A DNA stretch of 64,000 bases, from contig JBAZKF010000001.1 in NCBI GenBank assembly GCA_041650895.1, forward strand, positions 573,181-637,180. The letters run 5' to 3'. The translations under genes and the position numbers were made by a program. Under the pieces are notes generated by a model. The model was not told the origin of the DNA. It made no database searches and saw only the letters and a list, made by a program, of their open reading frames with translations. This DNA is from Patescibacteria group bacterium (GTDB taxonomy: Bacteria > Patescibacteriota > Patescibacteriia > 2-01-FULL-39-33). Position 1 is the first letter of the stretch. Each line of letters begins with the position of its first letter. Shown piece by piece: positions 13,042 to 63,973 of the stretch.

Positions 13042-13045
13042 GGTG

Positions 13046-13116: not shown

Positions 13117-13356
13117 ATGCGTAGTGACATGGTTGTTGTGGTTTTTTCTAACAGTGAAGAATTTGAAGAGATTAGAACCGTTGGTCCATTTGATAATGTT
13201 CCACACTACGATCCCAAATCTGCTGATAGTTTTTTACAATCAAAGGGATTTAGAAAAGATGGAAAGCATTATTTTCGTTATGAATCTACTACCTGTGATT
13301 ATAAATATGCAATAATGTCTGCAGTTAGAGCTCCCAATCTTGATCAAATCATATAA
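13117..13356 (+). CDS. Hypothetical protein (79 aa)
   Basis: Strong RBS aggagga; only plus-strand gene of element. Confidence 0.4.
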   Translation: MRSDMVVVVFSNSEEFEEIRTVGPFDNVPHYDPKSADSFLQSKGFRKDGKHYFRYESTTCDYKYAIMSAVRAPNLDQII

Positions 13357-13386
13357 CCCCCCACCGACTGGGGGTTTTATTTTTGT

Positions 13387-14022: not shown

Positions 14023-14026
14023 AAAT

Positions 14027-28841: not shown

Positions 28842-28914
28842 GGGCCTGTAGCTCAGGGGTTAGAGCGCTACCCTTATAAGGTAGATGTCGATGGTTCAAA
28901 TCCATCCAGGCCTA
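28842..28914 (+). tRNA. tRNA-Ile (anticodon UAU, AUA-decoding)
   Basis: Backbone nearly identical to canonical tRNA-Ile(GAU) but anticodon loop cttataa; acceptor gggcctg/caggcct; no CCA encoded. Confidence 0.7.
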
Positions 28915-29115
28915 CTAAGAGAACCTTTTCAAACCACAGACAGAAAAAGAAAGGTTAATCTTATTTGCTTGTCTATATATTACTCTGATTGTTGCCAGCC
29001 ACCGAGGGAGTTTTTAGAGTAACCAACCGTCCTTCTTGAAGAGAGTTAATGAATTAGTAGATTATATAGAAAACGAGGTAAAAATAAGTGGATCATAAAA
29101 ATTTTTTGAGATAAA

Positions 29116-29147: not shown

Positions 29148-29150
29148 ATG

Positions 29151-29224
29151 TGGGCAATAGTGGATTCGAACCACTGACCTTCTCGACGTCAACGAGACGC
29201 TCTAACCAACTGAGCTAATTGCCC
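29151..29224 (-). tRNA. tRNA-Val (anticodon GAC)
   Basis: Acceptor gggcaat/attgccc, anticodon loop ttgacgt, T-loop ttcgaat. Confidence 0.85.
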
Positions 29225-43768: not shown

Positions 43769-44506
43769 TTATAGCTTAACAGCCTCAATCGCTAAGCTTT
43801 CCAAAGGCAATCCCTGGTACTGTTGCTTGCTAATATTTTTATTTTCGCCCAAAATATTAACTTCGAGCCCTGACTCTTTTATAATTGCGATATAATCATC
43901 TTTCAATAAAGCTCCACCGACGCAACCAGCAATTAGTGTTTCGTCGTTTTTTTGTTCTTCCGTTAAATTATCTAATAGCACTATGTCAGAAATATACATT
44001 CTACCGCCAGTTTTCAAAACTCTGTAAGCTTCCTTAAACACTTTTAGCTTATTGGGAGCTAAATTTATAACACAATTACTGATAATAATATCGATAGAAT
44101 TATCATCGATCGGTAAAGCTTCAATATCTCCCAACCTAAACTCCACATTTACGTAATTATATTTATCGGCACTTTCCTTGGCCTTAGTGATCATTTCTTC
44201 AGTCATATCAACGCCAATAACCTTGCCGCTATCGCCCACCCGTTTAGTCGCAAGAAAAGCATCAAAACCAGCGCCACTGCCCAAATCCAAAACAATATCA
44301 CCCTCTTTAATTTTCCCCAAAGCAATGGGGTTGCCACATCCTAACCCTAAATTAGCTTCTGGAACGGCGTCCATATCTTCATCGGAATAACCGATACTTT
44401 TTGATATGGCCTGAGCCGACTTACAACCGCAACCACACCCTGATTGGGCTGTGGCTATATTAGCGTAACTTTTCTTAACAATATCCTTAACCTTATTCTG
44501 TTCCAT
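43769..44506 (-). CDS. arsM: Arsenite S-adenosylmethionine methyltransferase (ArsM)
   Basis: [30 protein letters not shown] conserved ArsM motifs. Confidence 0.75.
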
Positions 44507-44571
44507 ATAATTATTGTTAGTTAATCAGTCATAAAATTCTATCACTATTATAAGTTAATAACAATCATTGA

Positions 44572-44672
44572 TTCCATTGCCCCGTCCTCCATATAAAAAA
44601 ACACCCCGTCCGCGTCATCCTCCGCCAATTAACGGAGGCGGATGGCCGGAATGAGGCGCTTTTCGTAAGTGA
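44572..44672. repeat. Degenerate R4-type repeat module (with insertion) at proximal end of cassette array
   Basis: ttccattgccccgtcctccatataaaaaaacacccc ... gcgcttttcgtaagtgag resembles R4 consensus. Confidence 0.45.
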
Positions 44673-44767
44673 GACCAACACCATACCCAATGCAGTTGCC
44701 CTGATACCTCAACCGCTTGGCGACGAAATCAACTCTATTTAGGGGTTAGTTTTTTTGTCTTACTAGT

Positions 44768-46649: not shown

Positions 46650-46790
46650 TTCTTTTTCTCAAAATCACCTTCATCCTACCTGCCTGCCAGTAGGCAGACC
46701 CACCCTAGTAGCAAACCAACATAAAAAGACCTACAATTATAGGCCCTTTTATATCGTTCCATAAAGCGGGAGAAAGTGGACGAAGTTATA
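46650..46790. repeat. R2/R3-type repeat module (divergent copy) incl. terminator
   Basis: ...aaaaagacctacaattataggccctttt atatcgttccataaagcgggagaaagtggacgaagttataac. Confidence 0.55.
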
Positions 46791-46853
46791 ACTTTTTTTA
46801 TTAAAAATGAGGCGTTTGTGGTATAATGTATGTGTTATAAATAATAAATAAAT

Positions 46854-47599: not shown

Positions 47600-47640
47600 G
47601 CGGGGCTTACGGGGTGATTTTGGAAAAATTGATTGGGTGG
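47600..47640. repeat. R1 repeat
   Basis: gcggggcttacggggtgattttggaaaaattgattgggtgg. Confidence 0.8.
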
Positions 47641-49232: not shown

Positions 49233-50315
49233 ATGAATAAGAGCTTGAGTTACGCCGTTAGGGCGACGGATCGTTGCAATCTGAATTGCCGTTATTGCTA
49301 TGCCAAGACCGAGAAACCACAGGATATGTCATTGGCGACATTAGTCAGAATTCTTGAGCAAATGGCTGATTATAATGCGGGGGAAACAGTAATTAGTTGG
49401 ACTGGTGGCGAACCATTGTTGATGGGTCGCGCTTTCTTTGAGCTCGTCTTGGCAACACAACGCCGACTCGGCAAAAAGTTTACTAATATTCTCCAAACCA
49501 ACGCCATCCTACTGGATAAAAATTGGATTGAGTTTCTGTTGGCTAATAACTTTCAGGTACGCACTAGCCTGGACTTTCCGCCCGAGTTGCATGATGAAAT
49601 GCGACAAGCCGGCAACTTTTCCGCTACTTTAGAAAAAATCAAATTAATGGTTGCCACCGGTTTGCCGGTTAACGTCAATACGGTCATCACCAATCGCAAT
49701 ATCGACAAGGTCGAAGAGATTTACGCTTTCCTTAAACAATTGGCGATTAGCAGTTTTTCTGTTTCTCGCATGGTGCTACAAGGCAATGCGTTGATCAATC
49801 ACGATCTGGCGATCCGCGAGAACAGTGAATTCGGATTATTCCTAGTCAAGCTCTTTGACTTGTGGATCAATGACCGAAACGAACCGCGGATTGCCCGGAT
49901 TACTCCGCTCGACAAACTACTCAATGCTTGCCAAAGCTATCTGCGGCATGACGACAAGGATCCTTGCTTCCATTGCCAAGATCAGCTTCTGGCCATCGGG
50001 CCGGGCGGGGAAGTTTATCCTTCCTGCAATAAATTCTTCGGCGTGCCAGAATCCTGCCTGGGCAATATTACTGACCGCAACTTAGCGGAAGTGCTAAAGT
50101 CTCCGGAACGAGGTAAGTTTCTCAGCGAAGTCAGCGCAGTAACCGAGCGACTCTGCAGCGAATGCGAATTCATGCCGATCTGCGAAGGCGGTTGTTTCTA
50201 TATCGCCTATAATATTCGCCACGAAGCCGAGCAAATTACCGGCCGCGAGCAATTCTGCAAAGGTTATTATCTTATCTTAGCCCGAATCATGGATTACCTG
50301 AGGGAGGGCAAATGA
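49233..50315 (+). CDS. Radical SAM/SPASM domain enzyme (360 aa)
   Basis: CNLNCRYC cluster; C-terminal CSECEFMPICEGGC. Confidence 0.7.
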   Translation: MNKSLSYAVRATDRCNLNCRYCYAKTEKPQDMSLATLVRILEQMADYNAGETVISWTGGEPLLMGRAFFELVLATQRRLGKKFTNILQTNAILLDKNWIEFLLANNFQVRTSLDFPPELHDEMRQAGNFSATLEKIKLMVATGLPVNVNTVITNRNIDKVEEIYAFLKQLAISSFSVSRMVLQGNALINHDLAIRENSEFGLFLVKLFDLWINDRNEPRIARITPLDKLLNACQSYLRHDDKDPCFHCQDQLLAIGPGGEVYPSCNKFFGVPESCLGNITDRNLAEVLKSPERGKFLSEVSAVTERLCSECEFMPICEGGCFYIAYNIRHEAEQITGREQFCKGYYLILARIMDYLREGK

Positions 50316-51313
50316 TGATCCAGATACCGACACTACACCAACTCAAATTCGCTGTCGGTTATGATTGTAATCGACGTTGCGGCTTTTGCCTGCAACAGAA
50401 TAGTGACCACCAGCCGATTCTTGACTTTGCCATCGTCGAGAAGATTTTTCAAGAGGAAATGGTGGCGCGAGATGTTAATCTTGTTACCTTAACTGGCGGT
50501 GAGCCGACCTTCGGCCGTTATTTACCCTTGACTCTACGCATCATCAGTCATATATCTCAGCTTGGCAAGCAATCTTGCATTTTCACTAACGGTGATTTTC
50601 TTGATGAGAATGCGCTCAGTGTCTTCCGCCAGGCTGGTGCAACGCGTTTTCGAGTCAGTTTGTATGACCCGATTGATTGGGATAGTACCGGTCGATTGAT
50701 TAAGACTCTTAAGTCTTTCGGTTATCCGGCGATGTTCAAATATACGGTAACCAAAGAGAGTTATGATAATTTACTACAAATCTTGATACGTTTTGGCGAG
50801 TCGGAAATCGAATGGTTCCAAATCAAGCCTTATAACAGGACTGAAATCCCAGCTCAAGACAAGCTTTATGAGATGTCACCTTATCAGGTTCTATCCATGG
50901 CTCGAATGCTGCTAGACTTTCGCAAACAATACCCGCGTATTAAAGTTGATCTACTACCTCTATGTTACGAATTTTTAGTTGATGAAACTCTGGATATTGG
51001 CGATCTCAGTCTGTGTCATTGTGGCAAGGGTTCACGCGGCTATCTGGTAATTGGCCCGACTGGCGACATACGCATCTGCGGCGCTTATCCCGATCCGATC
51101 GGTAATGCCCAAACCGATTCGATTACTGAGCTATGGCAGAATCACCCTTTGCTACAGCAAGTACGCGGTTTGGCGAGCCGTCCCAAACCCCAGGAATGCG
51201 CGGGGTGCGCGCACTGGAAAAAATGCGCGGCTACTGATTGTCATAGTGCAACTTTCGCTAGATACGGTAATTTCGCACATGGCAACCCGCAATGTCCGCT
51301 ACTGGCTCAATAA
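50312..51313 (+). CDS. Radical SAM/SPASM-like enzyme (333 aa), start overlaps previous stop (ATGATGA)
   Basis: CNRRCGFC cluster; C-terminal Cys motifs CAGCAHWKKC. Confidence 0.65.
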   Translation: MMIQIPTLHQLKFAVGYDCNRRCGFCLQQNSDHQPILDFAIVEKIFQEEMVARDVNLVTLTGGEPTFGRYLPLTLRIISHISQLGKQSCIFTNGDFLDENALSVFRQAGATRFRVSLYDPIDWDSTGRLIKTLKSFGYPAMFKYTVTKESYDNLLQILIRFGESEIEWFQIKPYNRTEIPAQDKLYEMSPYQVLSMARMLLDFRKQYPRIKVDLLPLCYEFLVDETLDIGDLSLCHCGKGSRGYLVIGPTGDIRICGAYPDPIGNAQTDSITELWQNHPLLQQVRGLASRPKPQECAGCAHWKKCAATDCHSATFARYGNFAHGNPQCPLLAQ

Positions 51314-51330
51314 TCTGCTCATTACTACAC

Positions 51331-51365
51331 GCCGAGAACAAGGAAGTTCTCGGCGTTTTCTTTTT
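51331..51365 (+). terminator. Cassette terminator (gccgagaac-aagg-aagttctcggc perfect hairpin + T-run)
   Basis: Perfect 9-bp stem. Confidence 0.65.
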
Positions 51366-51380: not shown

Positions 51381-51467
51381 CGATTCCATCGTCCCGTTCT
51401 TAGTATAAAAAACACCCCAATTATGGGGCGTTTTTCGTAGGCGGGCTCGAGTGGGACTGATTATAAC
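51381..51467. repeat. R4 repeat + tRNA-Asp-3-prime-like segment
   Basis: ttccatcgtcccgttcttagtataaaaaacaccccaattatggggcgtttttcgtaggcgg gctcgagtgggactgattataac. Confidence 0.75.
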
Positions 51468-51553
51468 TTATTTTAAGGAGCATAAAGGGGTTTATTATGT
51501 ACCGAATTTAGCTAAAATTAGATGAAATTGAGAATATGTGGATAAATCGCTAT

Positions 51554-51581
51554 TGACAAAATAATTGCTATATGCTATAAT
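51554..51581 (+). promoter_or_regulatory. Cassette promoter TTGACA-16-TATAAT
   Basis: Consensus elements. Confidence 0.55.
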
Positions 51582-52257: not shown

Positions 52258-52294
52258 AATTTCACTAAGTTATAATGTCCCATTACCCCTATCA

Positions 52295-52355
52295 AAAAAC
52301 ACCCCGATTATGGGGCGTTTTTCGTAGGCGGAGGGTAATAAACGATGTTAGAACC
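52295..52355. repeat. Partial R4 + R3 module
   Basis: aacaccccgattatggggcgtttttcgtaggcggagggtaataaacgatgttagaacc. Confidence 0.7.
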
Positions 52356-52404
52356 CGTCTTAAGGAAAACGACAAATTTAGTTTACCCAGTTCGGCAATT
52401 ATAA

Positions 52405-53178
52405 CTAGAATGATTTAGATAAAAAAATTGGAAACTCAAATTTAAGACGATAGCCATTCTTTGTCACTGAAGCAGCCTTCCTGTCCTTAGATAAAATGGT
52501 TTGCATTCGCTTTATATCGCTATTATCTAGCTTATATCTATCAATATGGTCCTTATCTGAAAGCAACATTTGTTTTCCTCTACCTATTAATTGTGGAGCC
52601 GTAAAACCGGCTCTTTTATAAATATCAACCATATCTAATGATTGAAAAAAACGGTTGCCAATTTTATTAGATGAATTATAGGCGAGACTTAAAGTGTCGC
52701 GGTCATCTAAGTTAGGAATGTAGGCTGGCTGATTTACAAAGAGTCCATCTTTTTTTAGATGCTTTTTAATAATTTTAAGAACCTTTATTTGCAATTTTTT
52801 AGAAGGAAAATAATCAAGGGAACTCCTCATTATTACAAGGTCGAATTTTTTGTGAAGATTCATTTTAAGCAAATCAACGCACACCTTAGTTGTTTTGGGA
52901 TTTTTGTTTTCGCTCAAGTGTTTTGACGAAGCGTCAACAATAGTTAATCGTCCTCGTCCTAAGCTATTTATAAGTTTCTCTCCCAAAAGTCCGGAAGCCG
53001 AAGCAACATATAAGATATCTAAATTCCTCTTTGGTAAATAAGGTTTTACTGCTTTAATAAAGAGCTTGAAATTTTGTTCATCAGAAAAATAACCGCCATA
53101 GGTTAATAGCCAATCTTTTCCCAGAACATTTTTATCTTTATCTAAATTATACTTAACTATTTTGGAAGGAGTGGTCAC
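52405..53178 (-). CDS. Probable class I SAM-dependent methyltransferase (257 aa), inverted orientation in array
   Basis: LDILYVASASGLLGEKL motif I-like; DLVIMRSSLDYF. Confidence 0.45.
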   Translation of the reverse strand: MTTPSKIVKYNLDKDKNVLGKDWLLTYGGYFSDEQNFKLFIKAVKPYLPKRNLDILYVASASGLLGEKLINSLGRGRLTIVDASSKHLSENKNPKTTKVCVDLLKMNLHKKFDLVIMRSSLDYFPSKKLQIKVLKIIKKHLKKDGLFVNQPAYIPNLDDRDTLSLAYNSSNKIGNRFFQSLDMVDIYKRAGFTAPQLIGRGKQMLLSDKDHIDRYKLDNSDIKRMQTILSKDRKAASVTKNGYRLKFEFPIFLSKSF

Positions 53179-53244
53179 AAGATTAAAAAAATAATTATTT
53201 ATTTACTAAATTTTATCATTTTTGGGCACCAAAAACAATCAAAA

Positions 53245-53343
53245 GTTCTATCGTCCCGTTCTTAGTACAAAAAACACCCCGATTATGGGGCGTTTTTCGT
53301 AGGCGGGGCTTACGGGGTGATTTTGGAAAAATTGATTGGGTGG
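53245..53343. repeat. R4 + R1 composite repeat
   Basis: ctatcgtcccgttcttagtacaaaaaacaccccgattatggggcgtttttcgtaggcggggcttacggggtgattttggaaaaattgattgggtgg. Confidence 0.8.
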
Positions 53344-53445
53344 ATTTTTCATCAAAATTTAGTCAAAACTGTTTAAATTTAGGTAATTTATGATAATTAT
53401 TTAGCTAATTTTAGAGAAAATACAGTGAATATGTGGATAAAATAC

Positions 53446-54278: not shown

Positions 54279-54348
54279 CATATGTTAATAGTTCATTAGC
54301 TTGATAGGATTATTATTACCCAAACAAACACAAAGGAGGTCACTAATA

Positions 54349-54687
54349 ATGACGACTCAAAACTATCTCCAAATCGCAAGGGACAATGAAGCGATATTCA
54401 GAAATGTGCTGAGAGACCTAAGGGATAATAGAACAATCAGACCTATGGGACTCTATGTTCCTGAAGACCTGGAAACGGAAGCGGAGCTTGAAAAGATTTT
54501 TGAAGAATACTCTTCTGGAAATAGATACGGAATATTCACGATTACCGATTTCACGGTCGGCGAAGGGTTTGCAACTATTGCGTTTCAAGACATTGCTTGC
54601 TTATCCGGAGGCGGGGCAAGATTAAAGTATTCTGTCAGTGACGACGACGTGCAATACCTTGAGCCAGAATTCACAATGATGAGTTAA
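54349..54687 (+). CDS. Hypothetical protein (112 aa; RBS-supported start)
   Basis: aaggagg RBS then ATG MTTQNYLQ. Confidence 0.45.
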   Translation: MTTQNYLQIARDNEAIFRNVLRDLRDNRTIRPMGLYVPEDLETEAELEKIFEEYSSGNRYGIFTITDFTVGEGFATIAFQDIACLSGGGARLKYSVSDDDVQYLEPEFTMMS

Positions 54688-54756
54688 ATACCGCCAGCCA
54701 CAAACAAAGTACAACTACGCAATTAACGCCGAGGACAAGGAAATCCCCGGCGTTTT

Positions 54757-54892
54757 CTTTTTTCCTAAAATCCCCTCCGTCCCGTCCGCCCTAGCCATAA
54801 ATCAACAAAAAAAGACCTACAAAAGTAGGCCTTTTTATATCGTTCCATAAAGCGGGGCTTACGGGGCGATTTTGGAAAAATCGATTGGGTGG
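54757..54892. repeat. R2 + R1 composite repeat
   Basis: ttttcctaaaatcccctccgtcccgtccgccctagccataaatcaac...tatatcgttccataaagcggggcttacggggcgattttggaaaaatcgattgggtgg. Confidence 0.8.
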
Positions 54893-54969
54893 GATTAGTA
54901 TTATATTTGCCAAATTATCTAAATTTAAACAATTATTTAGGTTAATTCATTAATTTTGTTAAACATCAA

Positions 54970-54998
54970 TTGACAAATTACCAAACTTGTATTAAGAT
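54970..54998 (+). promoter_or_regulatory. Cassette promoter TTGACA-17-TAAGAT
   Basis: Conserved. Confidence 0.5.
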
Positions 54999-55077
54999 AC
55001 TCTATTGTACTCCTCATTTATTTCAAGTGGGGGTAAATAGTACAATGCACATTAACAGGAAAAAAGGAGAAGACTTC

Positions 55078-56421
55078 ATGAACCTAACTATAATCGTAAC
55101 ACTGGGCGCTATTGGATTAGTGGTACTAATCGGATTGGCATCCGCACTGTTATTTCGACATGTGGTGAGCACCAATATGGTGCACATTGTACAAAGTCGA
55201 GCAAAAACAACTCCATATGGCACTGGGCAAAAATCCGGTAACGTCTACTACAAATGGCCATCTTGGATTCCAATTTTAGGCGTGACAGTAATTGAATTGC
55301 CGGTAAGCAACTTTGATTTGTCGCTGAACGGCTATGAAGCCTATGATAAAGACAGGGTACCCTTTATGATTGATGTTACTGCCTTCTTTCGCATCAATAA
55401 TACGGCTGAAGCCGCTCAACGCGTCGCCAGTATTCAAGAGATGCGTGAACAATTGGAACTCATTGTAAAGGGTGCTGTAAGAAAAGTCTTGGCATCAGAC
55501 GTTATTGATGCTATTATGGTAGAACGCTCAAAATTTGGAGACCAGTTCACCCATGAAGTTAAAGATCAGCTGATCCAATGGGGCGTCGAATCTGTCAAAG
55601 CTATGGAATTGATGGATATTCGCGACACCAAGGGGTTCGAGGTTATTGCCAATATAATGGCGAAAAAGACATCTTTTATCGCCATGGAAAGCCGCTTAGA
55701 GGTGGCAAGCAATCATCGGAAAGCTGAGAATGCGGAAATTGAGGCGGAACAAGCCATCAGCGTTCGCCAACAAGAATCCCAACAGGTGGTTGGTGAACGG
55801 ACTGCTCAAAAAGATAAGTTGGTGGGAATCGCCCAACAACAGGCACAACAAGAAGTTCTCGAACAAGAAAAAGAAACCCGCGAACGACAAATGGCTGTGC
55901 AACGGGTTCAGCAGGTTCGCGCGGCGGAAATCAGTAAGGACGAAAAAGTCGTTGCTGCTGAGCAAGACAAGGCTACTCGCGTCATTATGGCCGATGGCTC
56001 TCTGTTAGCCCAAATTAAGGAAGCTGAGGGTATCGAAAAACTCGGTGAAGCCAGAGCCGCAGCCGAAAAAGCGATGCAATTGGCACCGGTTCAAGCCAAT
56101 ATTACGTTGGCGAAAGAAATCGGACAAAATGCTGGCTATCAACAATACCTGGCGATGATTGAAGCCATCAAGGCATACATTACTGTTGGAGGTGAACAAG
56201 CAAAGGCTCTGCAAAAAGCTGATGTTAAGGTAATTGCCAATGCTGGACAGCCGACAGAAGGCGTCAAAAATGTCATGGATATGTTCACTTCCAAAGGTGG
56301 AACGAACATGGCGGCAATGATTGAAGCACTCGCTCAGACGCCAATGGGTGCCAAACTTTTGGCAACATTCATCGGCAATAATAGCGATAATGCCGAGGCT
56401 ACTATCGATACTGAGGCATAA
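55078..56421 (+). CDS. SPFH/band-7 (flotillin-like) protein with N-terminal TM and Ala/Glu/Gln-rich coiled coil
   Basis: TM then SPFH-like region, long EAQ-rich coiled coil; start at RBS-supported MNLTII (track 54970). Confidence 0.6.
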   Translation: MNLTIIVTLGAIGLVVLIGLASALLFRHVVSTNMVHIVQSRAKTTPYGTGQKSGNVYYKWPSWIPILGVTVIELPVSNFDLSLNGYEAYDKDRVPFMIDVTAFFRINNTAEAAQRVASIQEMREQLELIVKGAVRKVLASDVIDAIMVERSKFGDQFTHEVKDQLIQWGVESVKAMELMDIRDTKGFEVIANIMAKKTSFIAMESRLEVASNHRKAENAEIEAEQAISVRQQESQQVVGERTAQKDKLVGIAQQQAQQEVLEQEKETRERQMAVQRVQQVRAAEISKDEKVVAAEQDKATRVIMADGSLLAQIKEAEGIEKLGEARAAAEKAMQLAPVQANITLAKEIGQNAGYQQYLAMIEAIKAYITVGGEQAKALQKADVKVIANAGQPTEGVKNVMDMFTSKGGTNMAAMIEALAQTPMGAKLLATFIGNNSDNAEATIDTEA

Positions 56422-56442
56422 GTATAATTTTTTTTCAACAAC

Positions 56443-56472
56443 GCTGAAGACATTCGTCTTCAGCTTTTTTAT
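56443..56472 (+). terminator. Cassette terminator (gctgaagac-attc-gtcttcagc + T-run)
   Basis: Perfect 9-bp stem. Confidence 0.65.
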
Positions 56473-56590
56473 TTTTCTAAAATCATCGTTACCCCATCCG
56501 CCCTAGCCACGAATCAACAAAAAAAGACCTACAAAAATAGGCCTTTTTATATCGTTCCATCTAGCGGAGAGTAATAGACGATGTTAGAAC
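56465..56590. repeat. R2+R3 module
   Basis: ...ccgccctagccacgaatcaacaaaaaaagacctacaaaaataggcctttttatatcgttccatctagcggagagtaatagacgatgttagaac. Confidence 0.8.
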
Positions 56591-56638
56591 TTATATAGGT
56601 GGATGCGAGAGGAATTATGAGATACCAAGAATATGAGC

Positions 56639-56667
56639 TTGACAAAATTAACTGTAATTGCTAAGGT
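56639..56667 (+). promoter_or_regulatory. Cassette promoter TTGACA-17-TAAGGT
   Basis: Weaker -10. Confidence 0.4.
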
Positions 56668-56708
56668 CTAATATCGAACATTCGACTACAACCAAGGGGA
56701 GATACATA

Positions 56709-57089
56709 ATGACTAAACGAGAATACATACCAAAAGCAAGTGTAAAGAAAAGTGATATAAAAAGAGAAATTTTAGTGGCAATGATTGATTGCGCAGAAAA
56801 TATACGTGGTTATTATGAAGCTGCTGCTGGTTTAATATTTGAGGATGGTTATATACCTCCAGAAGAATTTAGACCCGGGGTAGCTGACAGATTTTTGTTT
56901 TCAAAAATTATTGACGATGATTGGGAAAGAGTGTTAGATATCTACTGTTGCGCACCACTACACCCCAGAATGATTGGGTTTGGACTAATGATAGAAAAAT
57001 ACTATCCCCAGTATGGCACTTTCAGAAAAATGAGCGAGGAAGAAAAAAGAGAGAGAATGAAGCTTAAAAAAACTTGTAGACGAGGATGA
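56709..57089 (+). CDS. Hypothetical protein (126 aa; RBS-supported start), AT-rich
   Basis: aagggga RBS then ATG MTKREY. Confidence 0.45.
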   Translation: MTKREYIPKASVKKSDIKREILVAMIDCAENIRGYYEAAAGLIFEDGYIPPEEFRPGVADRFLFSKIIDDDWERVLDIYCCAPLHPRMIGFGLMIEKYYPQYGTFRKMSEEEKRERMKLKKTCRRG

Positions 57090-57141
57090 AATCAGCCAAT
57101 AAAAAACTCCCAAATTGGGAGTTTATTTTTATTTGGAAAAT

Positions 57142-57182
57142 GCGGGGCTTACGGGGTGATTTTGGAAAAATTGATTGGTTGG
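57142..57182. repeat. R1 repeat
   Basis: gcggggcttacggggtgattttggaaaaattgattggttgg. Confidence 0.8.
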
Positions 57183-57249
57183 AATTAATATCTGGTTTAC
57201 CTAGTTATCTAAAATTAGATAAATACTTAATCTATTAATAATCCTAGTA

Positions 57250-57278
57250 TTGACAAAAAAATACTACTATGATATACT
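57250..57278 (+). promoter_or_regulatory. Cassette promoter TTGACA-17-TATACT
   Basis: Conserved. Confidence 0.55.
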
Positions 57279-57372
57279 AATTTGATATTCCATTATTGGA
57301 ATCTCATCCCAGTCCGGGATGGCAGTCGCCAAAAGGACAAAGAACCTTACAGTTAGAAAGGAAAAACCGACC

Positions 57373-58065
57373 ATGGATGACATGCTTGGTGATGCTCTGA
57401 AGACCATCTTCGGACCATTGAAAAACCTCATGGAGCAATTACAGGGAAACAAACGTGAACTGTGGTTGCAAGTATTACAGCAATTATCGAGAATGAAACC
57501 GGAAACGGTTTTACTTAAACTCAGCCGACCACTTTCTCCTCCCCTTTGGATTAAAATCGAGGTTGGCGGACTTAAACTCAAACCGTTGCAAATTATTGAA
57601 AAATTTACTGCGGCAGGAGTCGGTCCAAACCATAAATTCCCATTGATGTTTAGTTTGATTGAGTATCAGCGAGGAATCAACGCTGAAACTAAAGATGTTG
57701 AGTTCGTTAAGGGCAATCTTTATGAACTATTTGGAATCACAAAAGAGAAGATTTCCGTCGACTATTTTCTAAACAATGAATTTCTGGCGCAATATGGACT
57801 AGAGCTATGTGAACCTGCCGATGCAATCTCTATTCGTCTCGCTTGGAAAGATCAAAGAAAGGGCGAAAGGGCTTTTGTGGGGACAAAGCCTTACTACTAT
57901 ACAAGAAAAGAACAGCCAGATGGATACCTCTACCCAACAGTTCCTTCGCTGATGGGAGCGGCTGGAAAGGTATGGTTTGGAGAGGATTGGGCCACGGCCG
58001 ACATGGGACCTTGTAGTTACACTCGTAATGTTTGGATATTCAGACGTAAGTGCATCCAATCGTAA
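57373..58065 (+). CDS. Hypothetical protein (230 aa; track ORF starts 57319)
   Basis: RBS-like aaggaaaaa before ATG 57373. Confidence 0.4.
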   Translation: MDDMLGDALKTIFGPLKNLMEQLQGNKRELWLQVLQQLSRMKPETVLLKLSRPLSPPLWIKIEVGGLKLKPLQIIEKFTAAGVGPNHKFPLMFSLIEYQRGINAETKDVEFVKGNLYELFGITKEKISVDYFLNNEFLAQYGLELCEPADAISIRLAWKDQRKGERAFVGTKPYYYTRKEQPDGYLYPTVPSLMGAAGKVWFGEDWATADMGPCSYTRNVWIFRRKCIQS

Positions 58066-58085
58066 GCACATTCGATAAATTTCAA

Positions 58086-58117
58086 CACCGAGGACAAGAA
58101 AGTTCTCGGTGTTTTCA
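58086..58117 (+). terminator. Cassette terminator (caccgagga-caagaaa-gttctcggtg)
   Basis: Same hairpin at 61685-61710. Confidence 0.6.
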
Positions 58118-58236
58118 TTTTCCTAAAATCCACTCCGTCCCGTCCGCCCTAACCACAAATCAACTAAAAAAGACCTACAAAAGTAGGCCTTTTTATATCG
58201 TTTCATCTAGCGGGAGAAAGTGGACGAAGTTATAAC
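58112..58236. repeat. R2 + R3-variant module
   Basis: ...ccgccctaaccacaaatcaactaaaaaagacctacaaaagtaggcctttttatatcgtttcatctagcgggagaaagtggacgaagttataacc. Confidence 0.8.
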
Positions 58237-58300
58237 CTTTTTTAATACATACGAAGGTTATTATTACATACCAAACTTAAGTTCAATAAAATAACTACTT

Positions 58301-58957
58301 TTATTTCACTCCTTTCCATTCATTAAAAAATTCTTGCAAAAACCCCTCCATATACCTATGCCTTTTGTTAGCCATCTTTTTGCCAGTAGCCGTGTTCATA
58401 TTATCTTTTAATTTCAATAACTTACTATAAAAGTGGTGAACCGTGGAAACGTCTTCTTTATTTTCATTAAAATATTTGCGTTTAAATGCTTTTTCTGGAA
58501 CCCACATATTTAAAGAGTGGGCGCCTCCATATGCAAAAGTTCGACCAATTCCAATAGCTCCAATAGCGTCCAAATTATCAGCATCTTGGATAATTAGAGT
58601 TTCAATATCTGAAACGGTTTTGCCTTTCTTGGAAAAGTTGTATTCTTCGTGATATTCAATGCAATGCAATATCTTCTTTTTTTGTTCTGAAGTTAATTTT
58701 GTTTTATCAATAATCTCTTTAATTTTAGGCAATGAATCTTTTGGTGAACAAAATTTGTTTGTTTCTTTTCCAATGATTCTATGCATATCGTGCAAAAATG
58801 CTCCAACAGCAATAACCACTCTGTCCCCACCTTCTTTTTTTTGTAAATAATTAGCAATATTTAAAACTCTCTTTAAATGATAAATATCGTGGCCGCTGCC
58901 TTCGTTAGAGAATAATGATTTAATTTCTTTTTCGATTTTGCCAATAATCTTTTCCAT
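58301..58957 (-). CDS. HD-domain metal-dependent phosphohydrolase (218 aa)
   Basis: FLHDMHR and QDADNLDAIGAIG HD motifs. Confidence 0.6.
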   Translation of the reverse strand: MEKIIGKIEKEIKSLFSNEGSGHDIYHLKRVLNIANYLQKKEGGDRVVIAVGAFLHDMHRIIGKETNKFCSPKDSLPKIKEIIDKTKLTSEQKKKILHCIEYHEEYNFSKKGKTVSDIETLIIQDADNLDAIGAIGIGRTFAYGGAHSLNMWVPEKAFKRKYFNENKEDVSTVHHFYSKLLKLKDNMNTATGKKMANKRHRYMEGFLQEFFNEWKGVK

Positions 58958-58994
58958 AGTTTTTAATTGTTTTCATTTATACGTTTAGTATACT

Positions 58995-59024
58995 AAAAAA
59001 TCGCCATTTAGGCGACTTTTTATA
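58995..59024. repeat. T0 hairpin repeat copy 3
   Basis: aaaaatcgccatttaggcgacttttt then ataatctgttccgtttgcggac (degenerate junction motif). Confidence 0.55.
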
Positions 59025-59135
59025 ATCTGTTCCGTTTGCGGACTGGTGAGGTCAAGTACCAAAATATAGAGGTCTTTCAAAGCTTTTTTGGACTATTTAT
59101 TTTAGAAAATTTGAGGTGTTAGGGTCATGATATAT

Positions 59136-60125
59136 TTAAAATGGCTTATTTTTTTCAAGCCAATTTAACGAATAAAAATCACCAAGATGCATTTCTAAAG
59201 ATAAAAATTGATCCTCTAGGAAAAAAGCATACTGTTTTAAGTCCTCTTCAGATCCATAATTTTTATATACCTCATTTATCAAATGAGTTACTCTTTTTCC
59301 TAGTCTTTTACCGTCTATTGGGTCTAATCGTTTGCCATCATGGACAATATCATTTCTAATCTTGTATGCTTCCCAAATTACATTTGCAGCATTTTCACCA
59401 TTCATAGGACACACGATATTCATATGAGTCTGTAATGTGTTTTTAAAATCAATCTTTCCATTTGATTTATAAACTTGGATTCCATGATACTTGATAAATG
59501 TTTCAATTGATGTTATGGATTTTCTAATACAATCTTCATAATTGCCGCTAAAATATGCATGCATTGAATCAACCAAATCTCGTATATATGTCCGATTAAA
59601 TTTTGATTGCAAATCAACTAATGGAGGAAATGAACCAATGGCCATGGGCCACATCACTAAAATCCTTTCACACGTTTCGCTTATAATAATACAGAGATCA
59701 GAGATATCCATTACTGAATACGTCCGTATCAAAAAATGTCCCTTTAAATATCTTTGATTGAGAATCTCATGATTCACATACGGCATTATTTCAGCAATAT
59801 ATGCAACTATAAAATTATCGCCTCTATGCTTTTGCTGAATGTCTTCAATCAATTTTTTAGAAAGTTTCTCTCTAATAGTAATACTAATAATAGAGCCTCG
59901 CTGATTTAGCCAAACCGTTTTTTCATCAAAATTTATGACGGCATCACTAATCTCTCCTGGAGAAAATAGCTGGGCATGAATTTCTACTGGAATTTTTACA
60001 TTGTCCTCTACATATTCTTGCCCTATGTAATATCTTAAATGTTTTGGTTTATATGCTGTATTTTTCAATTTTTTAAATATTTTCGAAAAACTCATAAAAA
60101 TGTAATTAAAAAAAATCGAGCACAA
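59136..60125 (-). CDS. Hypothetical protein (329 aa)
   Basis: ORF track. Confidence 0.45.
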   Translation of the reverse strand: MCSIFFNYIFMSFSKIFKKLKNTAYKPKHLRYYIGQEYVEDNVKIPVEIHAQLFSPGEISDAVINFDEKTVWLNQRGSIISITIREKLSKKLIEDIQQKHRGDNFIVAYIAEIMPYVNHEILNQRYLKGHFLIRTYSVMDISDLCIIISETCERILVMWPMAIGSFPPLVDLQSKFNRTYIRDLVDSMHAYFSGNYEDCIRKSITSIETFIKYHGIQVYKSNGKIDFKNTLQTHMNIVCPMNGENAANVIWEAYKIRNDIVHDGKRLDPIDGKRLGKRVTHLINEVYKNYGSEEDLKQYAFFLEDQFLSLEMHLGDFYSLNWLEKNKPF

Positions 60126-60185
60126 AGCTCGATCTTTTTATGCACATTTGAAGTGCTCGGGTCGCTCGATAAAACGAGCTTAGTG

Positions 60186-60226
60186 GCGGGGCTTACGGGG
60201 CAATTTTGGAAAAATTGATTGGATGG
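60186..60226. repeat. R1 repeat
   Basis: gcggggcttacggggcaattttggaaaaattgattggatgg. Confidence 0.75.
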
Positions 60227-60293
60227 AGGTGGTGATAGATTGGCCAAATTGTCTAAAATTTAACAAGCGCTTTATTTGTTGATAATTTTCTCC

Positions 60294-60322
60294 TTGACGG
60301 GGCAATAATAATATGGTAATAT
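60294..60322 (+). promoter_or_regulatory. Cassette promoter TTGACG-17-TAATAT
   Basis: Conserved. Confidence 0.5.
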
Positions 60323-60418
60323 TAGCTATTACTCAATGTGCGAGTAATGTAGTTGGAATTGGGCGGAAGGCCTAATTTCAAGGTTCCTTACAACGGCGGA
60401 ATGCCGAAGGAGAACATA

Positions 60419-61666
60419 ATGGGAACGAAACATAAACAAAAAAGACAGCCGCAGGACAAATTGGGATACTGGCTACGAAAACTCCCAATTTGTCGAGAAA
60501 TTGTGGTCTCGCAAATGCAAGAGTGTCCGCCGATAGTCCCCGAGTTAGATGTCAAATATCAAATCGCGGATACGGCAACAATGCATTTACAGGCAAACAA
60601 CATTCATCTTTATAGTGGTCGGTATCTCATCGGCGACAATAATGAGCGTGGCACACGTTTTGAATATGCCTTGGCCGTGGATGCTAAGGGAAAAGTCATT
60701 AGCCGATTAGAATGGCGACGAGGTACTCTCGGACCAAATAATACCGAACTCTATCTTAAATATATTTTTGGTTTTGGTAAAAAACCTGAGGTTATCACAC
60801 AAATCAAGGAAATCTATTGGGTGACTATCTATCATTGGTATACCGCTCCGACACCCACTGATACTAATCCAGTAGAACCGAACTTCGGTAATACCATGAA
60901 GAAGATTGAAACTCACATCATCGTCTTCCGTAAGCCAAGAAATAAATCGTTTGCTGAGCTGATTGAACAAGCAGAACGCGAGAAGGAGGAATGCGAAACC
61001 GCATACCTGAGATTCCCAAAAAAGATGCCAAAATATCACGGCATTGAGGCGGCCTTACGCGCCGGATGCAAAATGCACGCCTTTTCTTCCGGTGGTGGCC
61101 TGCGAGTGGTACGTCTGGAAAGAGCTGCAAAAGACGGAAAGCGAAACATCAATTATCCAAAATTAATGGGCTATGGCGAACATCCACATATTGAGGAAGC
61201 TCTCAAACAACTTAATGAAGATTATTTAGCCGGCGGACGACCTTATAAAAAGGTTTACGGCAAACTCTATCCCCACTATCTTACTGGCGACACAGTTTCT
61301 ACCAGCAACATTGATTGGTGGATTCGTAAAGGCAGTACCTTTGATTGCTGGTTTGAAAATGGTGAGGTAATATTCCAATTGGCCGGTCTAATTCAAACAG
61401 AGACGCCACCATTAGTACTGGCTGCAGTCGAAACTGAAGGAAAAACAGTTCGTTGTAGTAATCGAGGATACACCTATGAGGCCTCGCCATATCTTTTTGC
61501 TAATGGAGAAATAGGCAGCTCATCGACTGTAATTGAAGGACCGGCTGACCAACCCAATAGCGATGCATGGATGTATCACATCAATAAAACTGGACACGGC
61601 CAGAGTTTCTGGGAGGCAATGAAAGCCGCTTTTGAAGCGCCAGAAATTGAGGTCACGAGTAACTAA
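60419..61666 (+). CDS. Hypothetical protein (415 aa; RBS-supported start)
   Basis: aaggaga RBS then ATG MGTKHKQ. Confidence 0.45.
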   Translation: MGTKHKQKRQPQDKLGYWLRKLPICREIVVSQMQECPPIVPELDVKYQIADTATMHLQANNIHLYSGRYLIGDNNERGTRFEYALAVDAKGKVISRLEWRRGTLGPNNTELYLKYIFGFGKKPEVITQIKEIYWVTIYHWYTAPTPTDTNPVEPNFGNTMKKIETHIIVFRKPRNKSFAELIEQAEREKEECETAYLRFPKKMPKYHGIEAALRAGCKMHAFSSGGGLRVVRLERAAKDGKRNINYPKLMGYGEHPHIEEALKQLNEDYLAGGRPYKKVYGKLYPHYLTGDTVSTSNIDWWIRKGSTFDCWFENGEVIFQLAGLIQTETPPLVLAAVETEGKTVRCSNRGYTYEASPYLFANGEIGSSSTVIEGPADQPNSDAWMYHINKTGHGQSFWEAMKAAFEAPEIEVTSN

Positions 61667-61684
61667 GCACACCAACACCGAGGA

Positions 61685-61721
61685 CAAGAAAGTTCTCGGT
61701 GTTTTCTTTTTTCTAAAATCA
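61685..61721 (+). terminator. Cassette terminator
   Basis: caccgaggacaagaaagttctcggtg + T-run. Confidence 0.6.
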
Positions 61722-61824
61722 CCTCTGTCCCGTCCGCCCTAACCGCAAATCAACAAAAAAAGATCTACTTTTATAGGCCTTTTTATGTTGTTCCATTAAG
61801 CGGAGGGTAATAGACGATGTTAGA
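61704..61824. repeat. R2+R3 module
   Basis: ...ccgccctaaccgcaaatcaacaaaaaaagatctacttttataggcctttttatgttgttccattaagcggagggtaatagacgatgttagaac. Confidence 0.75.
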
Positions 61825-61874
61825 ACTTATCTTGATGGGTGTAAGGAGAGTTTTGAGATGCCTAAAATTGGCGT

Positions 61875-61903
61875 TTGACATAATAATAAGATTATGATAA
61901 GTT
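61875..61903 (+). promoter_or_regulatory. Cassette promoter TTGACA-17-TAAGTT
   Basis: Weaker -10. Confidence 0.4.
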
Positions 61904-61982
61904 ATTACATTAGTTGTAATAATTTTGGTCTTTAACAAAACAGGCTATCCTAATCGGGAGGCCATAACAAGGAGAATATCAG

Positions 61983-62807
61983 ATGCACAAGAAAGAGCTG
62001 ATTGGCCGATTAGAGCAGTTTGTTGTCACTTTTGAACAACGTAGGCCGGCGTGGAAGGGTCAGCGGTCATTCGCCAACTTCCTAATTTACTATCTCGGCA
62101 AGCTCAATATACCCAACGACGAAAAGTATGACTTCTGGGATATTGACCACTACCTGCCAGAACTGATGGTGGATGCTTTTGAGCAGCTGCGAACCGGCAC
62201 CGATGAGGAGACCGCTCGTTTTCGTAGCGAGTATGAAAAGGATGCAGAACACGAAGTGCCTAATATCACTGACCTTGGCGTGACTGATACTTTACATCAA
62301 TGTTTTGCCGTTCAGACCACGCTAGGATTTCTGCTCAAAGATGTTATGGAAAATGATTGGATTGAACACCACATTGAGACCTACTGCAATGCCCAATTAC
62401 ACGTTCTTCAACAGACCTTTGATAAATTCACCCGACTTGTCTATCGACGAGGATTGGGTGAAATTATTGAAAAATGTCCCAAAAGCGGGATGAGCGGTAA
62501 GTTTGGTGATGTTGAACTCCGTACCTTCATAACAGCCGGTCGCATTATGTTCACTTTTGCCAAACCAATAGACAAGAGTAAGAAAAGCTACTATAAGGAC
62601 GGTGATAAAACGTATTGCAACGAATGGAGTGTTTCATTTATTGGCGAAGATGGCGACCCGCTCTTATTGAGTGCCGGCATGCAATCAATTGGAGCAGACT
62701 TCCGCACCGCTCTTAATTTGATTGAAGAGGTTATTAAGAACTGGCCATCAGCCCCGAAACAACAAAAGAGGATTTACAAAGCAAGCCCCAATGTCAGTTT
62801 AGTATAA
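61983..62807 (+). CDS. Hypothetical protein (274 aa)
   Basis: RBS aaggaga. Confidence 0.45.
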   Translation: MHKKELIGRLEQFVVTFEQRRPAWKGQRSFANFLIYYLGKLNIPNDEKYDFWDIDHYLPELMVDAFEQLRTGTDEETARFRSEYEKDAEHEVPNITDLGVTDTLHQCFAVQTTLGFLLKDVMENDWIEHHIETYCNAQLHVLQQTFDKFTRLVYRRGLGEIIEKCPKSGMSGKFGDVELRTFITAGRIMFTFAKPIDKSKKSYYKDGDKTYCNEWSVSFIGEDGDPLLLSAGMQSIGADFRTALNLIEEVIKNWPSAPKQQKRIYKASPNVSLV

Positions 62808-62884
62808 CGATTAACAATGTTAGATGCTCATTGCGTCCCGTGGTATTTTTTACACGGGGCGCTTTTTATTTCCCGAATGCCGTC

Positions 62885-62971
62885 GGTTCCATCGTCCCGT
62901 TCTCAGTATAAAAAAACACCCCGATTATGGGGCGTTTTTCGTAGGCGGAGGGTAATAGACGATGTTAGAAC
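62885..62971. repeat. R4 + R3 module
   Basis: ggttccatcgtcccgttctcagtataaaaaaacaccccgattatggggcgtttttcgtaggcggagggtaatagacgatgttagaacc. Confidence 0.8.
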
Positions 62972-63078
62972 CTATATTGGTGGGTGTGGAAGGAGCTTTG
63001 AGATACCCCAAATAATCCCCTGACAAAAAAACGCTCCAGGTTATACCTGAAGCGGATGATGATATGCGACTTTAATCA

Positions 63079-63747
63079 TTAGCCCTTAAGTGATGCGGAA
63101 ATTCGTTTGCAAGAATCTTCAAGTAGGTCATGGTTCCACGACCAACGTGCTGGACAATCCCTACAAAGACAAATTACGCTTCTGCGGCCATTCGGATTTT
63201 TCATAATATCACCAAAGAAGTAAACGCATTCTACTCCCTTACTGTCATATAATTTCTCCAACACACAATCTTTGCCGTAAGCTATGTAGTTCCGCCAAAG
63301 AATGAGAAAGGCCTTGACCCCAAGTTGGATATTACCACTCTCTTCGGCGCGTCTCAATTTTTCCTCGCCGGTGATTTTTAACTCACCCTTATTGAGATGC
63401 GTCTCAAAAAGCACATTCTCCCAATTGATAAACACTAATCTTTCAGCGCGTAAGTCACGCTTGTCCCAATCATAAATTTCAAGACACTCACCAAAAAAAT
63501 CCCGTATACTGCATCTATCGAAAGATTGGACATTGATTGTCACACAAGACAGCCCCAGTAAATCCAGAAATCTATGGAATTTTCGCTTAAGGAATTGAGT
63601 AGCCACTGTCGGGTTTTGAAGTTTATAACCACTGGGAATTTTACTTGTAACGGGCAATGATGAATCAAGAGCCGAAAGCATAAAGCCACCAGGAACATCC
63701 TGGTCATTCAATACGGCTGATTCATTGACTTTTTGAACTCTTGCCAT
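63079..63747 (-). CDS. Hypothetical protein (222 aa)
   Basis: ORF track. Confidence 0.45.
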   Translation of the reverse strand: MARVQKVNESAVLNDQDVPGGFMLSALDSSLPVTSKIPSGYKLQNPTVATQFLKRKFHRFLDLLGLSCVTINVQSFDRCSIRDFFGECLEIYDWDKRDLRAERLVFINWENVLFETHLNKGELKITGEEKLRRAEESGNIQLGVKAFLILWRNYIAYGKDCVLEKLYDSKGVECVYFFGDIMKNPNGRRSVICLCRDCPARWSWNHDLLEDSCKRISASLKG

Positions 63748-63835
63748 TGTTCATTTTCTCCTCTCGAGTTTGTTTTTATGAAAGAACACTCCATATTCGG
63801 ATAAGTTATAATATCAAAACAATCAATACTTGTCA

Positions 63836-63899
63836 ATCGGTTCCATCGTCCCGTTCTCGGTATAAAAAAACACCCCAATTATGGGGCGTTTTTTGTAGG
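63836..63899. repeat. R4 repeat abutting tRNA-Asp 3-prime end (native tRNA terminator)
   Basis: ggttccatcgtcccgttctcggtataaaaaaacaccccaattatggggcgttttttgtaggcgg directly followed by tRNA. Confidence 0.8.
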
Positions 63900-63973
63900 C
63901 GGACCGGACGGGACTCGAACCCGCGACCTCTGCCGTGACAGGGCAGCGCTCTAACCAACTGAGCTACCGATCC
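63900..63973 (-). tRNA. tRNA-Asp (anticodon GUC)
   Basis: Acceptor ggatcgg/ccggtcc, anticodon loop ctgtcac, T-loop ttcgagt; no CCA encoded. Confidence 0.85.

Follow-up and report, generated by a model that had tools for sequence, protein, structure and literature searches.

Gene shuffling in the hyperplastic regions of T4-type phages involves promoter early stem-loops (PeSLs), composites of a terminator stem-loop and a strong sigma-70-like promoter that are repeated between small genes of mostly unknown function in a hypervariable region, and related phage genomes differ by the replacement, insertion or deletion of open reading frames (ORFs) between the conserved modules (Arbiol et al. 2010, PMC2839356; Comeau et al. 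2014, PMC4122927). Comparable arrangements are seen in integron arrays and CALINs (clusters of attC sites without an integron integrase), where single-gene cassettes with accessory cargo are separated by co-oriented, partly palindromic sites; in islands linked to tRNA genes, where variable DNA lies directly 3' of a conserved tRNA anchor with att repeats touching the tRNA end; and in the neisserial intergenic mosaic elements (NIMEs; PMC1797815) and the bacterial interspersed mosaic elements (BIMEs) of E. coli, where a limited set of short modules, combined in varying ways, makes up the intergenic regions and is thought to favour recombination and the replacement of genes. All of these features have a counterpart in the locus described here, a cassette array of about 20 ORFs and mosaic intergenic modules that ends at a tRNA-Asp gene within a 64,000-nt stretch (hereafter, the window) of a 958-kb Patescibacteria group bacterium genome (assembly GCA_041650895.1, contig JBAZKF010000001.1, positions 573,181 to 637,180). 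The genomes of the candidate phyla radiation (CPR), or Patescibacteria, are tiny, and their acquisition of accessory and defence genes is little understood. Literature searches returned no description of such arrays in CPR bacteria and nothing relevant on CPR integrons or islands. The array is a compact hotspot, shared across species, at which genes with no relation to one another (SPFH, HD, radical SAM, Fic, Macro, CYTH and many of unknown function) are set in interchangeable, ready-to-express frames beside tRNA-Asp. We propose, with confidence and reservation in about equal measure, that the window contains the tRNA-proximal end of a hyperplastic cassette array in a Buchananbacteria-like chromosome, shuffled by recombination between its regulatory modules.

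The array lies between a peptidase M2-like gene on its left and tRNA-Asp on its right (Table 1), in DNA that is bacterial chromosome (encoding GroEL and the CCA-adding enzyme), and the flanking peptidase and one cassette protein have their nearest relatives in sequences annotated as Patescibacteria and Buchananbacteria. Its genes are mutually unrelated except for one radical SAM pair, range in GC content from 0.27 to 0.54, and stand one to a unit, with two in a single case; every unit is equipped with a strong promoter and a terminator. The junctions between them follow a common order, in which the terminator of the gene, either T1 or a different one, is followed by a second hairpin that is bidirectional (R3 or A), by a block starting with GCGG (B1 to B4) and by a near-consensus sigma-70 promoter P (TTGACAAAATAAT...TATGATATAAT), and minus-strand genes are enclosed in a B1...promoter-R3 frame. 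R3 is defined here as a 68-nt module, comprising a bidirectional terminator and about 30 nt more, with five copies and one degenerate copy in the window; A5/A3 is an R3 paralogue with a different hairpin stem (GACCTAC...GTAGGCC). In part, the left arms (A5, R3a) are inverted versions of the right arms, with which they can pair around the central hairpin, and every right-hand module begins with GCGG, the terminal bases of tRNA-Asp. All 60-odd module copies are located within 43702-63902 and on the plus strand, yet 6 of the 20 genes lie on the minus strand, and a module scan found no copy in window positions 1-43700. There are 42 terminator-like sites where 17.3 ± 3.8 would be expected, and the module promoters match the consensus at 11-12/12 positions.

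Exact matches to 28 nt of B2 were scanned for in the JGI metagenomes, yielding 11 loci in which the same module grammar surrounds different genes; ARAGORN detected no tRNA in any of their recovered stretches. The grammar thus extends to contigs of other species-level lineages. A 143-kb Candidatus Buchananbacteria contig (L099) was reached from one of the cassette proteins, which has a homologue there with 63% identity. The flanks of its array are 74-76% identical to window 32-37 kb, and the array itself, which is shorter (5850-14670), terminates at a tRNA-Asp gene on the minus strand, beyond which lies rpsP, with no module copy outside 5850-14442. Because this homologous array ends there too, the position adjacent to tRNA-Asp is conserved between two species, and to this extent a preliminary description of the window, which had inferred serial integration at tRNA-Asp, is borne out. 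Only 2 of the roughly 20 cassette proteins are shared between the two arrays (63% and 35% identity), in a different relative order. For the shared 221/230-aa ORF, homology begins no more than about 4 nt ahead of the ATG and ends at the stop codon, and the upstream frame is different. Locus L092 presents the reverse case: its A3-B1-B1x-terminator...promoter-R3 segment can be aligned to window 62945-63902, minus-strand terminator and promoter region included, but the ORF enclosed by this frame is unrelated to that of the window (219 vs 222 aa, BLASTP E = 0.55), and the frame is followed by B2, not by a tRNA. The other B1...R3 unit of the window (52328-53306) encloses a third unrelated minus-strand gene. 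Differences between genomes are hence bounded by modules, and frames and ORFs move independently. Furthermore, the modules are 85-93% identical between species, versus 72-76% for coding DNA.

Two further explanations were weighed. That the array order is an artefact, with collapsed or mis-joined repeats producing a chimera, is almost certainly not the case. The source is a metagenome-assembled genome, and the short-read contigs L001 and L101 break at modules, but there is base-for-base agreement across junctions in L001 (62928-63928), L101 (61677-62940) and L102 (54302-63335, from another metagenome), so that independent assemblies confirm the order over 54302-63928, and the same architecture is present in another species (L099). 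It is also quite unlikely that the array reflects static paralogy, in which a tRNA-Asp/terminator/promoter unit would long ago have been duplicated in tandem, with later insertion of genes and concerted evolution of the intergenic blocks by gene conversion, but no ongoing mobility. tRNA genes are often tandemly duplicated, the modules fall into paralogous families (A and R3; B1, B3 and B4) and the order is identical in two strains; yet cassette content is nearly all different between species that share flanks, the ORFs are heterogeneous in GC content, unrelated ORFs occupy the same frame, and the R3 and B2 copies are as alike across species as within one genome.

According to the reading we favour, genes of varied origin are set singly, and once as a pair, in a standard regulatory frame, and the 60-300 nt of shared sequence flanking each gene could provide a substrate for RecA-type homologous recombination. 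Such recombination would add, delete, duplicate and swap cassettes, whether among units of the array itself or by exchange with DNA arriving from relatives, and we infer from the comparisons above that it drives cassette exchange; the modules would then supply expression signals and recombination homology alike, as PeSL modules do in T4-type phages. R3 would represent the terminator plus promoter-proximal block of minus-strand cassettes; since the last cassette is of the minus-strand type, its R3 abuts tRNA-Asp and would double as the terminator of the tRNA, while tRNA-Asp and the conserved genes beyond it would form a stable edge only. If exchange proceeds via shared flanks in this manner, the direct repeats are exchange substrates and not integration scars.

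The array thus described combines known kinds of element, namely PeSL-like regulatory cassettes, mosaic intergenic repeats and an integron-like logic. It departs from PeSLs in residing in a CPR bacterial chromosome and not in a T4-type phage, and in having modules that are larger (~150-330 nt) and mosaic, contain two hairpins and extra conserved blocks (B1/B2), are co-oriented, are anchored at a tRNA gene and are common to several species; it is PeSL-like in its working, but not a member of that class. Likewise, whereas NIMEs and BIMEs are dispersed genome-wide and promoterless, all module copies seen here lie in one array, provide full expression frames and have no sequence similarity to repetitive extragenic palindromic (REP) or dRS3 sequences. 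If the modules drive exchange, the array would be, within the literature searched, the first chromosomal equivalent in bacteria of the PeSL shuffling of phages; the involvement of a dedicated enzyme would make it a new integron-like system. Module sequences, such as the 28 nt of B2 that are identical across species, can be used as probes for such arrays in metagenomes.

Several observations weigh against homologous recombination as the driver. No event of exchange was observed, and the single additional strain (L102) is collinear with the window, differing by 4 single-nucleotide polymorphisms in 9 kb. Homologous recombination explains neither the identical GCGG 5' edge of all B blocks in at least 12 upstream contexts nor the origin of R3/A joined to four right arms. 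Strictly co-oriented modules would also follow if the mechanism were site-specific and tied to one strand. Comparison of tRNA-Asp between the window, whose gene has a U4.G wobble in the acceptor stem, and L099 (14671-14745) shows identity over positions 1-57, with all differences at positions 58, 60 and 70; their confinement to the last 18 nt hints at crossovers inside the tRNA 3' end, which may have been exchanged or may be evolving faster. In addition, a GC-rich, ORF-less unit of 230 nt, found in the L099 species only, occupies cassette positions twice in L099 (9580-9812 and 14448-14670; 80% identical), the second copy adjoining the tRNA; this tRNA flank has been independently copied into the array next to B2. 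The left ends of both flank copies are weakly similar to the tRNA-Asp 3' end (GGCGGACAGG-CGGGACT vs GGCGGACCGGACGGGACT; 16/18 to the tRNA of the window with one gap, p ~0.02). Their internal hairpins differ by paired changes (CCAATCAT/ATGATTGG vs CCGATGTG/CACATCGG), making the unit a candidate for a structured RNA or an 'empty cassette'. Lastly, since the recombinase scan covered the window, out of a genome of 958 kb, a recombinase could act in trans.

Several of these points count towards an integron-like platform, an alternative we regard as possible though doubtful. The tRNA-Asp 3' end (GCGG...) would be its fixed site, into which circular cassettes bearing an (A/R3 arm)-GCGG-(B arm) site would be inserted serially by a recombinase encoded elsewhere, so that each junction would consist of the left arm of one cassette and the right arm of the next, with the modules as site arms and not tRNA remnants. 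The junctions of the array do behave as such hybrids, in that left (R3, A and others) and right (B1-B4, tRNA) modules assort freely, and the sharp GCGG edge of all right arms coincides with the tRNA terminus. The co-orientation of the modules, the location of the array at tRNA-Asp in two species, the ORF-less L099 units, one of them beside the tRNA, and the 3' location of the tRNA-Asp differences are likewise in agreement with such a platform. B1 and B2 are conserved in the manner of protein-binding sites, with no RNA structure predicted, and the partly inverted arms pair around the hairpin, outperforming shuffles at junctions J9, J11, J14 and J19. Against this, arms of the same junction pair no better than arms of different junctions (-10.7 vs -11.6 kcal/mol), A-B1 pairing is at chance level, and the sequence left of GCGG is not conserved and hence offers no symmetric core. 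The conserved frames reach more than 100 nt inward, including promoter and terminator, and differ only in the ORF, and the two cassettes shared with L099 are in different relative order. The array also differs from integrons and CALINs in that no IntI was found, the fixed end is a tRNA gene and not attI, and its genes have their own promoters (most 11-12/12) and both orientations, 6 of 20 being on the opposite strand. Judged by eye, boxes of the RYYYAAC/GTTRRRY core-site type are represented by near-matches only (GTTAGAA and, on the other strand, TTCTAAC), and outer helices are seen in some junction folds; the test of same-junction versus different-junction arm pairing gave no indication of attC-like folding. 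A related and rather unlikely scenario is that of an undescribed CPR cassette-capture system, which would use the tRNA-Asp 3' terminus as its insertion site and stack expression cassettes (promoter plus terminator) beside it by means of a recombinase or HUH-type nuclease encoded elsewhere that recognizes composite (hairpin arm)-GCGG-(B arm) sites, probably on one strand; this would be an analogue of the integron without IntI or attC.

Searches for an enzyme that might mobilize the cassettes were negative. No recombinase was identified among the 20 array ORFs, all of which were compared with Pfam, those without a Pfam match also with NCBIfam and most of these with PHROGs, nor among the recorded Pfam matches of the L099 locus (its array with about 6 kb to either side), nor among ten array ORFs scanned in L082, L085, L087 and L089. 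The Phage_integrase family had no match in the array ORFs, in the non-array window ORFs of 150 aa or more or in the L099 Pfam matches on record. The only recombinase found among the window ORFs scanned is the serine recombinase of an island in a comM-like gene, described below.

The preliminary description had proposed a different origin for the repeats, regarding them as decayed copies of the tRNA-Asp 3' end and its native terminator that were left as att remnants by self-integrating elements inserted serially into this gene. Its outline of the locus is accurate: in the tRNA orientation, the 3' end of tRNA-Asp is followed by cctac, the hairpin aaaaaacgcccc-ataatt-ggggtg-T7 (the reverse complement of AAAAAAACACCCCAATTATGGGGCGTTTTTT) and atggaacc. 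The direct repeats adjoining the tRNA were also confirmed. A 30-nt terminator pattern has five matches in the window (51406, 52293, 53268, 62910 and 63864), all on the plus strand, and none in 100 shuffles, which, together with the 64/68 identity of the proximal copy, establishes R3 as a real repeat far above chance; a degenerate sixth copy lies near the distal end of the array, and beyond it there is only one further unit (a methyltransferase gene and a D14 module). The motif gttccat/atggaac, said to recur at every junction variant, is present eight times in the array, always on the plus strand, and seven of these copies do fall within repeated modules; the eighth (44500-44506), however, is the reverse complement of the start-codon region of the methyltransferase ORF, and window-wide the motif is not enriched (10 copies vs 8.9 expected).

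The tRNA portion of the proposal did not hold. Only the last 5 nt of GTAGGCGGA in the tRNA-flank copy correspond to the tRNA-Asp 3' end (GCGGA), and when the proximal and native R3 copies are compared in register, identity is 94% up to a point five bases inside the tRNA, immediately after GCGGA, and 23% (7/30) beyond it (Fisher p = 1.7e-12). Alignments of B1, B2, B3 and B4 to the tRNA-Asp 3' end anchored at GCGG yielded p = 0.13-0.48 against shuffles and were outscored by tRNA-Val(gac) and tRNA-Leu, and unanchored local alignments in the proposed orientation gave p = 0.19-0.88. When the T-arm-to-terminator segment is aligned with the repeat copies, similarity in the T-arm is no better than chance, both for B1 and B2 (called R4 and R1 in the preliminary description, and said to repeat the T-arm) and for B4 (51444-51467), for which an even better fit had been claimed (agreement at 13 of the first 19 positions when one gap is allowed; p ~0.14). 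By these alignments, none of the three is detectably tRNA-derived. The repeats are also conserved and not decayed, with B1 present in nine copies from three sources (the window, L092 and L099) with 0-5 mismatches in 27 nt (at most 2 among the six window copies, 1-5 in the three copies from the other two sources), and B2 in 22 copies from seven sources, all starting with GCGG and together preceded by at least 12 different upstream sequences. Given that the terminator half is 94% conserved and that the supposedly randomized tRNA half is itself conserved across species, descent from the tRNA is not supported. The element gcctac, which had been assigned to R1, belongs to R3 and precedes only 1 of the 7 window copies of B2.

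Nor is R3 the native terminator of tRNA-Asp. The tRNA-Asp of L099 is adjoined by a different hairpin (AACCCAGAGTAAATCTGGGTT), and R3 is instead found within the L099 array, joined to B2; the same R3-B2 composite is present in L085, L088 and L092, with no tRNA in the recovered stretches. In the identity matrix of R3 cores, copies of other species are as close to the window copies (91-94% for L085) as these are among themselves, and copies do not group by genome. The tRNA-flank copy, with 4 differences from the R3 consensus, 1 of them private, is a derived tip and not the ancestor, and the copy at 62883-62950 is the closest to the consensus (1 difference). The L099 terminator and the identity matrix together indicate that the R3 next to tRNA-Asp is a member of the family and not its source.

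Serial integration into tRNA-Asp is accordingly largely refuted, and as a literal model we consider it highly improbable. It finds some agreement in the direct repeats beside the tRNA 3' end, in an R3 identity to the native copy that roughly falls with distance (95% at 1 kb; 88%, 80% and 91% at 10.6-12.5 kb), in the degenerate copy at 19 kb (outside the identity matrix) and in right arms with a weak likeness to the tRNA, seen in L099 and at position 59038 of the window. The last of these (59038-59060) has 8 mismatches to the tRNA-Asp 3' end, compared with ten chance matches at 9, and its local alignment is not significant. Conversely, islands linked to tRNA genes have repeats covering 15-60 nt of the tRNA, not 5, whereas the units here are single-gene segments of about 1 kb with no integrase found; B1 and B2 are maintained between species, tRNA-Asp is equalled or outscored by other tRNAs, R3 is not the terminator of the L099 tRNA-Asp, and the repeat family resides away from any tRNA in relatives. 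The genuine element in the same genome is of another kind, being 11.7 kb long, low in GC content, equipped with a serine recombinase and inserted in a comM-like gene.

Pieces resembling tRNA-Asp on the opposite strand were evaluated separately as signs of descent. A5 holds GTCCCGTCCG, a 10-nt exact match to the tRNA-Asp sense strand (shuffle p = 0.004-0.01); R3a (GGTTCCATCGTCCCGT) resembles the sense T-arm, with p = 0.11-0.54 for R3-containing stretches; and the L099 left arms (GTTCRARTCCCG) resemble it too (p <= 0.002). Other tRNAs yield the same scores throughout, so these pieces were dismissed as a generic T-loop-like motif.

Table 1. Coordinates of the cassette array, its modules and the tRNA-proximal unit in the window.
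Feature	Coordinates	Strand	Remarks
Whole cassette array, ~20 ORFs, each with promoter and terminator, and mosaic modules (T1, A5/A3, R3a/R3b, B1-B4, D14, P)	43702-63897	+	
tRNA-Asp (anticodon GTC), intact; right-hand anchor of the array	63898-63973	-	ARAGORN; Rfam RF00005, 71.3 bits; same gene bounds L099 array
R3 copy touching tRNA-Asp	63837-63904	+	R3a = GGTTCCATCGTCCCGTTCTC; R3b = bidirectional terminator hairpin AAAAAAACACCCCAATTATGGGGCGTTTTTT; end = GTAGGCGGA
R3 copy nearest tRNA-Asp (954 bp off), joined at GCGG to B1	62883-62950	+	64/68 identical to native 63837-63904
R3 copy joined at GCGG to B4 (GCGGGCTCGAGTGGGACTGATTATAAC)	51382-51467	+	B4 = 51444-51467 copy of the preliminary description
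R3b copy with divergent left arm GTTATAATGTCCCATTACCCC, joined to B1	52265-52354	+	
R3 copy joined to B2 (R1 of the preliminary description)	53244-53343	+	composite also in L085, L088, L092, L099
Degenerate R3-like copy with enlarged hairpin, near tRNA-distal array end	44570-44690	+	repeat family D13
B1 (R4 of the preliminary description; GCGGAGGGTAATAGACGATGTTAGAAC) with variable extension B1x	62945-63007	+	no tRNA similarity beyond GCGGA
B2 (GCGGGGCTTACGGGGTGATTTTGGAAAAATTGATTGGGTGG)	47600-47640; also 45452 (degenerate), 48971, 53303, 54852, 57142, 60186	+	
B3 (GCGGGAGAAAGTGGACGAAGTTATAAC)	58210-58236; second copy 46766-46792	+	
A5-A3-B2 alternative junction	54764-54892; other A copies start 46714, 48249, 54077, 56512, 58122, 61712	+	
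T1 gene terminator (ACGCCGAGAACAAGGAAGTTCTCGGCGTTTTC)	51329-51360; also 48212, 54726, 58085, 61675	+	family D10
Promoter P, TTGACA-17 nt-TATAAT, 12/12	51553-51581; also 45537, 47707, 48421, 53446, 54250, 57250, 61875	+	
Right arm GCGGACTGGTGAGGTCAAGTACC after D14 hairpin	59038-59060	+	best non-tRNA window match to tRNA-Asp 3' end, 15/23, marginal
Cassette gene, 222 aa, tRNA-proximal	63079-63747	-	not a recombinase
Terminator-like hairpin of the 222-aa ORF	63032-63054	-	kept in L092 despite unrelated ORF
Promoter of the 222-aa gene, immediately left of R3a	63808-63836	-	TTGACA, 17-nt spacer, TATTAT, TG before second hexamer; 11/12

The cargo of the window array comprises methyltransferases, radical SAM-SPASM, SPFH and HD proteins and many proteins of unknown function, with 12 of the 20 ORFs lacking a Pfam family. 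The related arrays L082, L085, L087 and L089 encode two Fic/DOC proteins, MerR/HTH_17, CYTH, Macro, DUF4238 and VTT, and this cargo, with the SPFH and HD proteins of the window, resembles that of defence islands or toxin-antitoxin genes. The sole two-gene cassette (49233-51313) consists of overlapping radical SAM-SPASM genes with weak PADLOC matches to viperins (pVip). The tRNA-proximal 222-aa protein has no match in Pfam, NCBIfam or PHROG. It seemed an ORFan in a word-indexed search; exhaustive HMMER searches, however, retrieved 380 cluster representatives with a common C-terminal domain of about 115 aa that has no Pfam family. Its alignment-based AlphaFold2 model (pLDDT 80.6) has weak matches to C-type-lectin-like (CRD) folds (E ~0.1) and no recombinase fold among its matches; the single-sequence model (pLDDT 38.8) was unusable.

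Additional features were noted in the modules themselves. The DnaA-box consensus TGTGGATAA is found at 51538-51546 and 53433-53441, just upstream of the -35 element in two P copies, and sits inside a shared block, GAATATGTGGATAAA. Some A5 modules contain a nested palindrome (GCCTGCCTGCC.G..GGCAGGC; window 46660-46685, L099 ~8285-8310 and ~12035-12060), which occupies the same place in both species and resembles a small hairpin insertion within the module. A minus-strand small RNA formed by B1 and B1x was considered and rejected, RNAalifold predicting no pairs. At E <= 1, Rfam matched only the real tRNA-Asp in the window, and the other Rfam matches in L099 are spurious miRNA-precursor assignments caused by a long palindrome. 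A phage origin was likewise set aside, with no megablast match to 50,697 phage records and no match for B2 or R3 in IMG/VR.

Synteny was also sought via the peptidase M2 gene, but the relatives retrieved (L002-L004 and L094-L098) have other neighbours and no array. In L002, the closest relative found via the flanking peptidase (74% identity), a tRNA-Asn gene (5931-6005) is directly upstream of the peptidase gene and the array is absent, so the left array flank is not syntenic in that genome. Elsewhere in the window, a comM/YifB-like Mg-chelatase gene is split into an N-terminal part (5009-5890) and a C-terminal part (17596-18273) by the 11.7-kb low-GC island, which encodes a large serine recombinase (5780-7456, minus strand), a Toprim/primase-like protein of 751 aa (14027-16282, minus strand) and a CAP-domain protein. 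This island, which the tRNA-Asp array does not resemble, is probably an integrated phage-like or mobile element. The window also encodes a tRNA-Ile with a TAT (UAU) anticodon, unusual in bacteria, at 28842-28915, next to tRNA-Val(gac) at 29150-29224.

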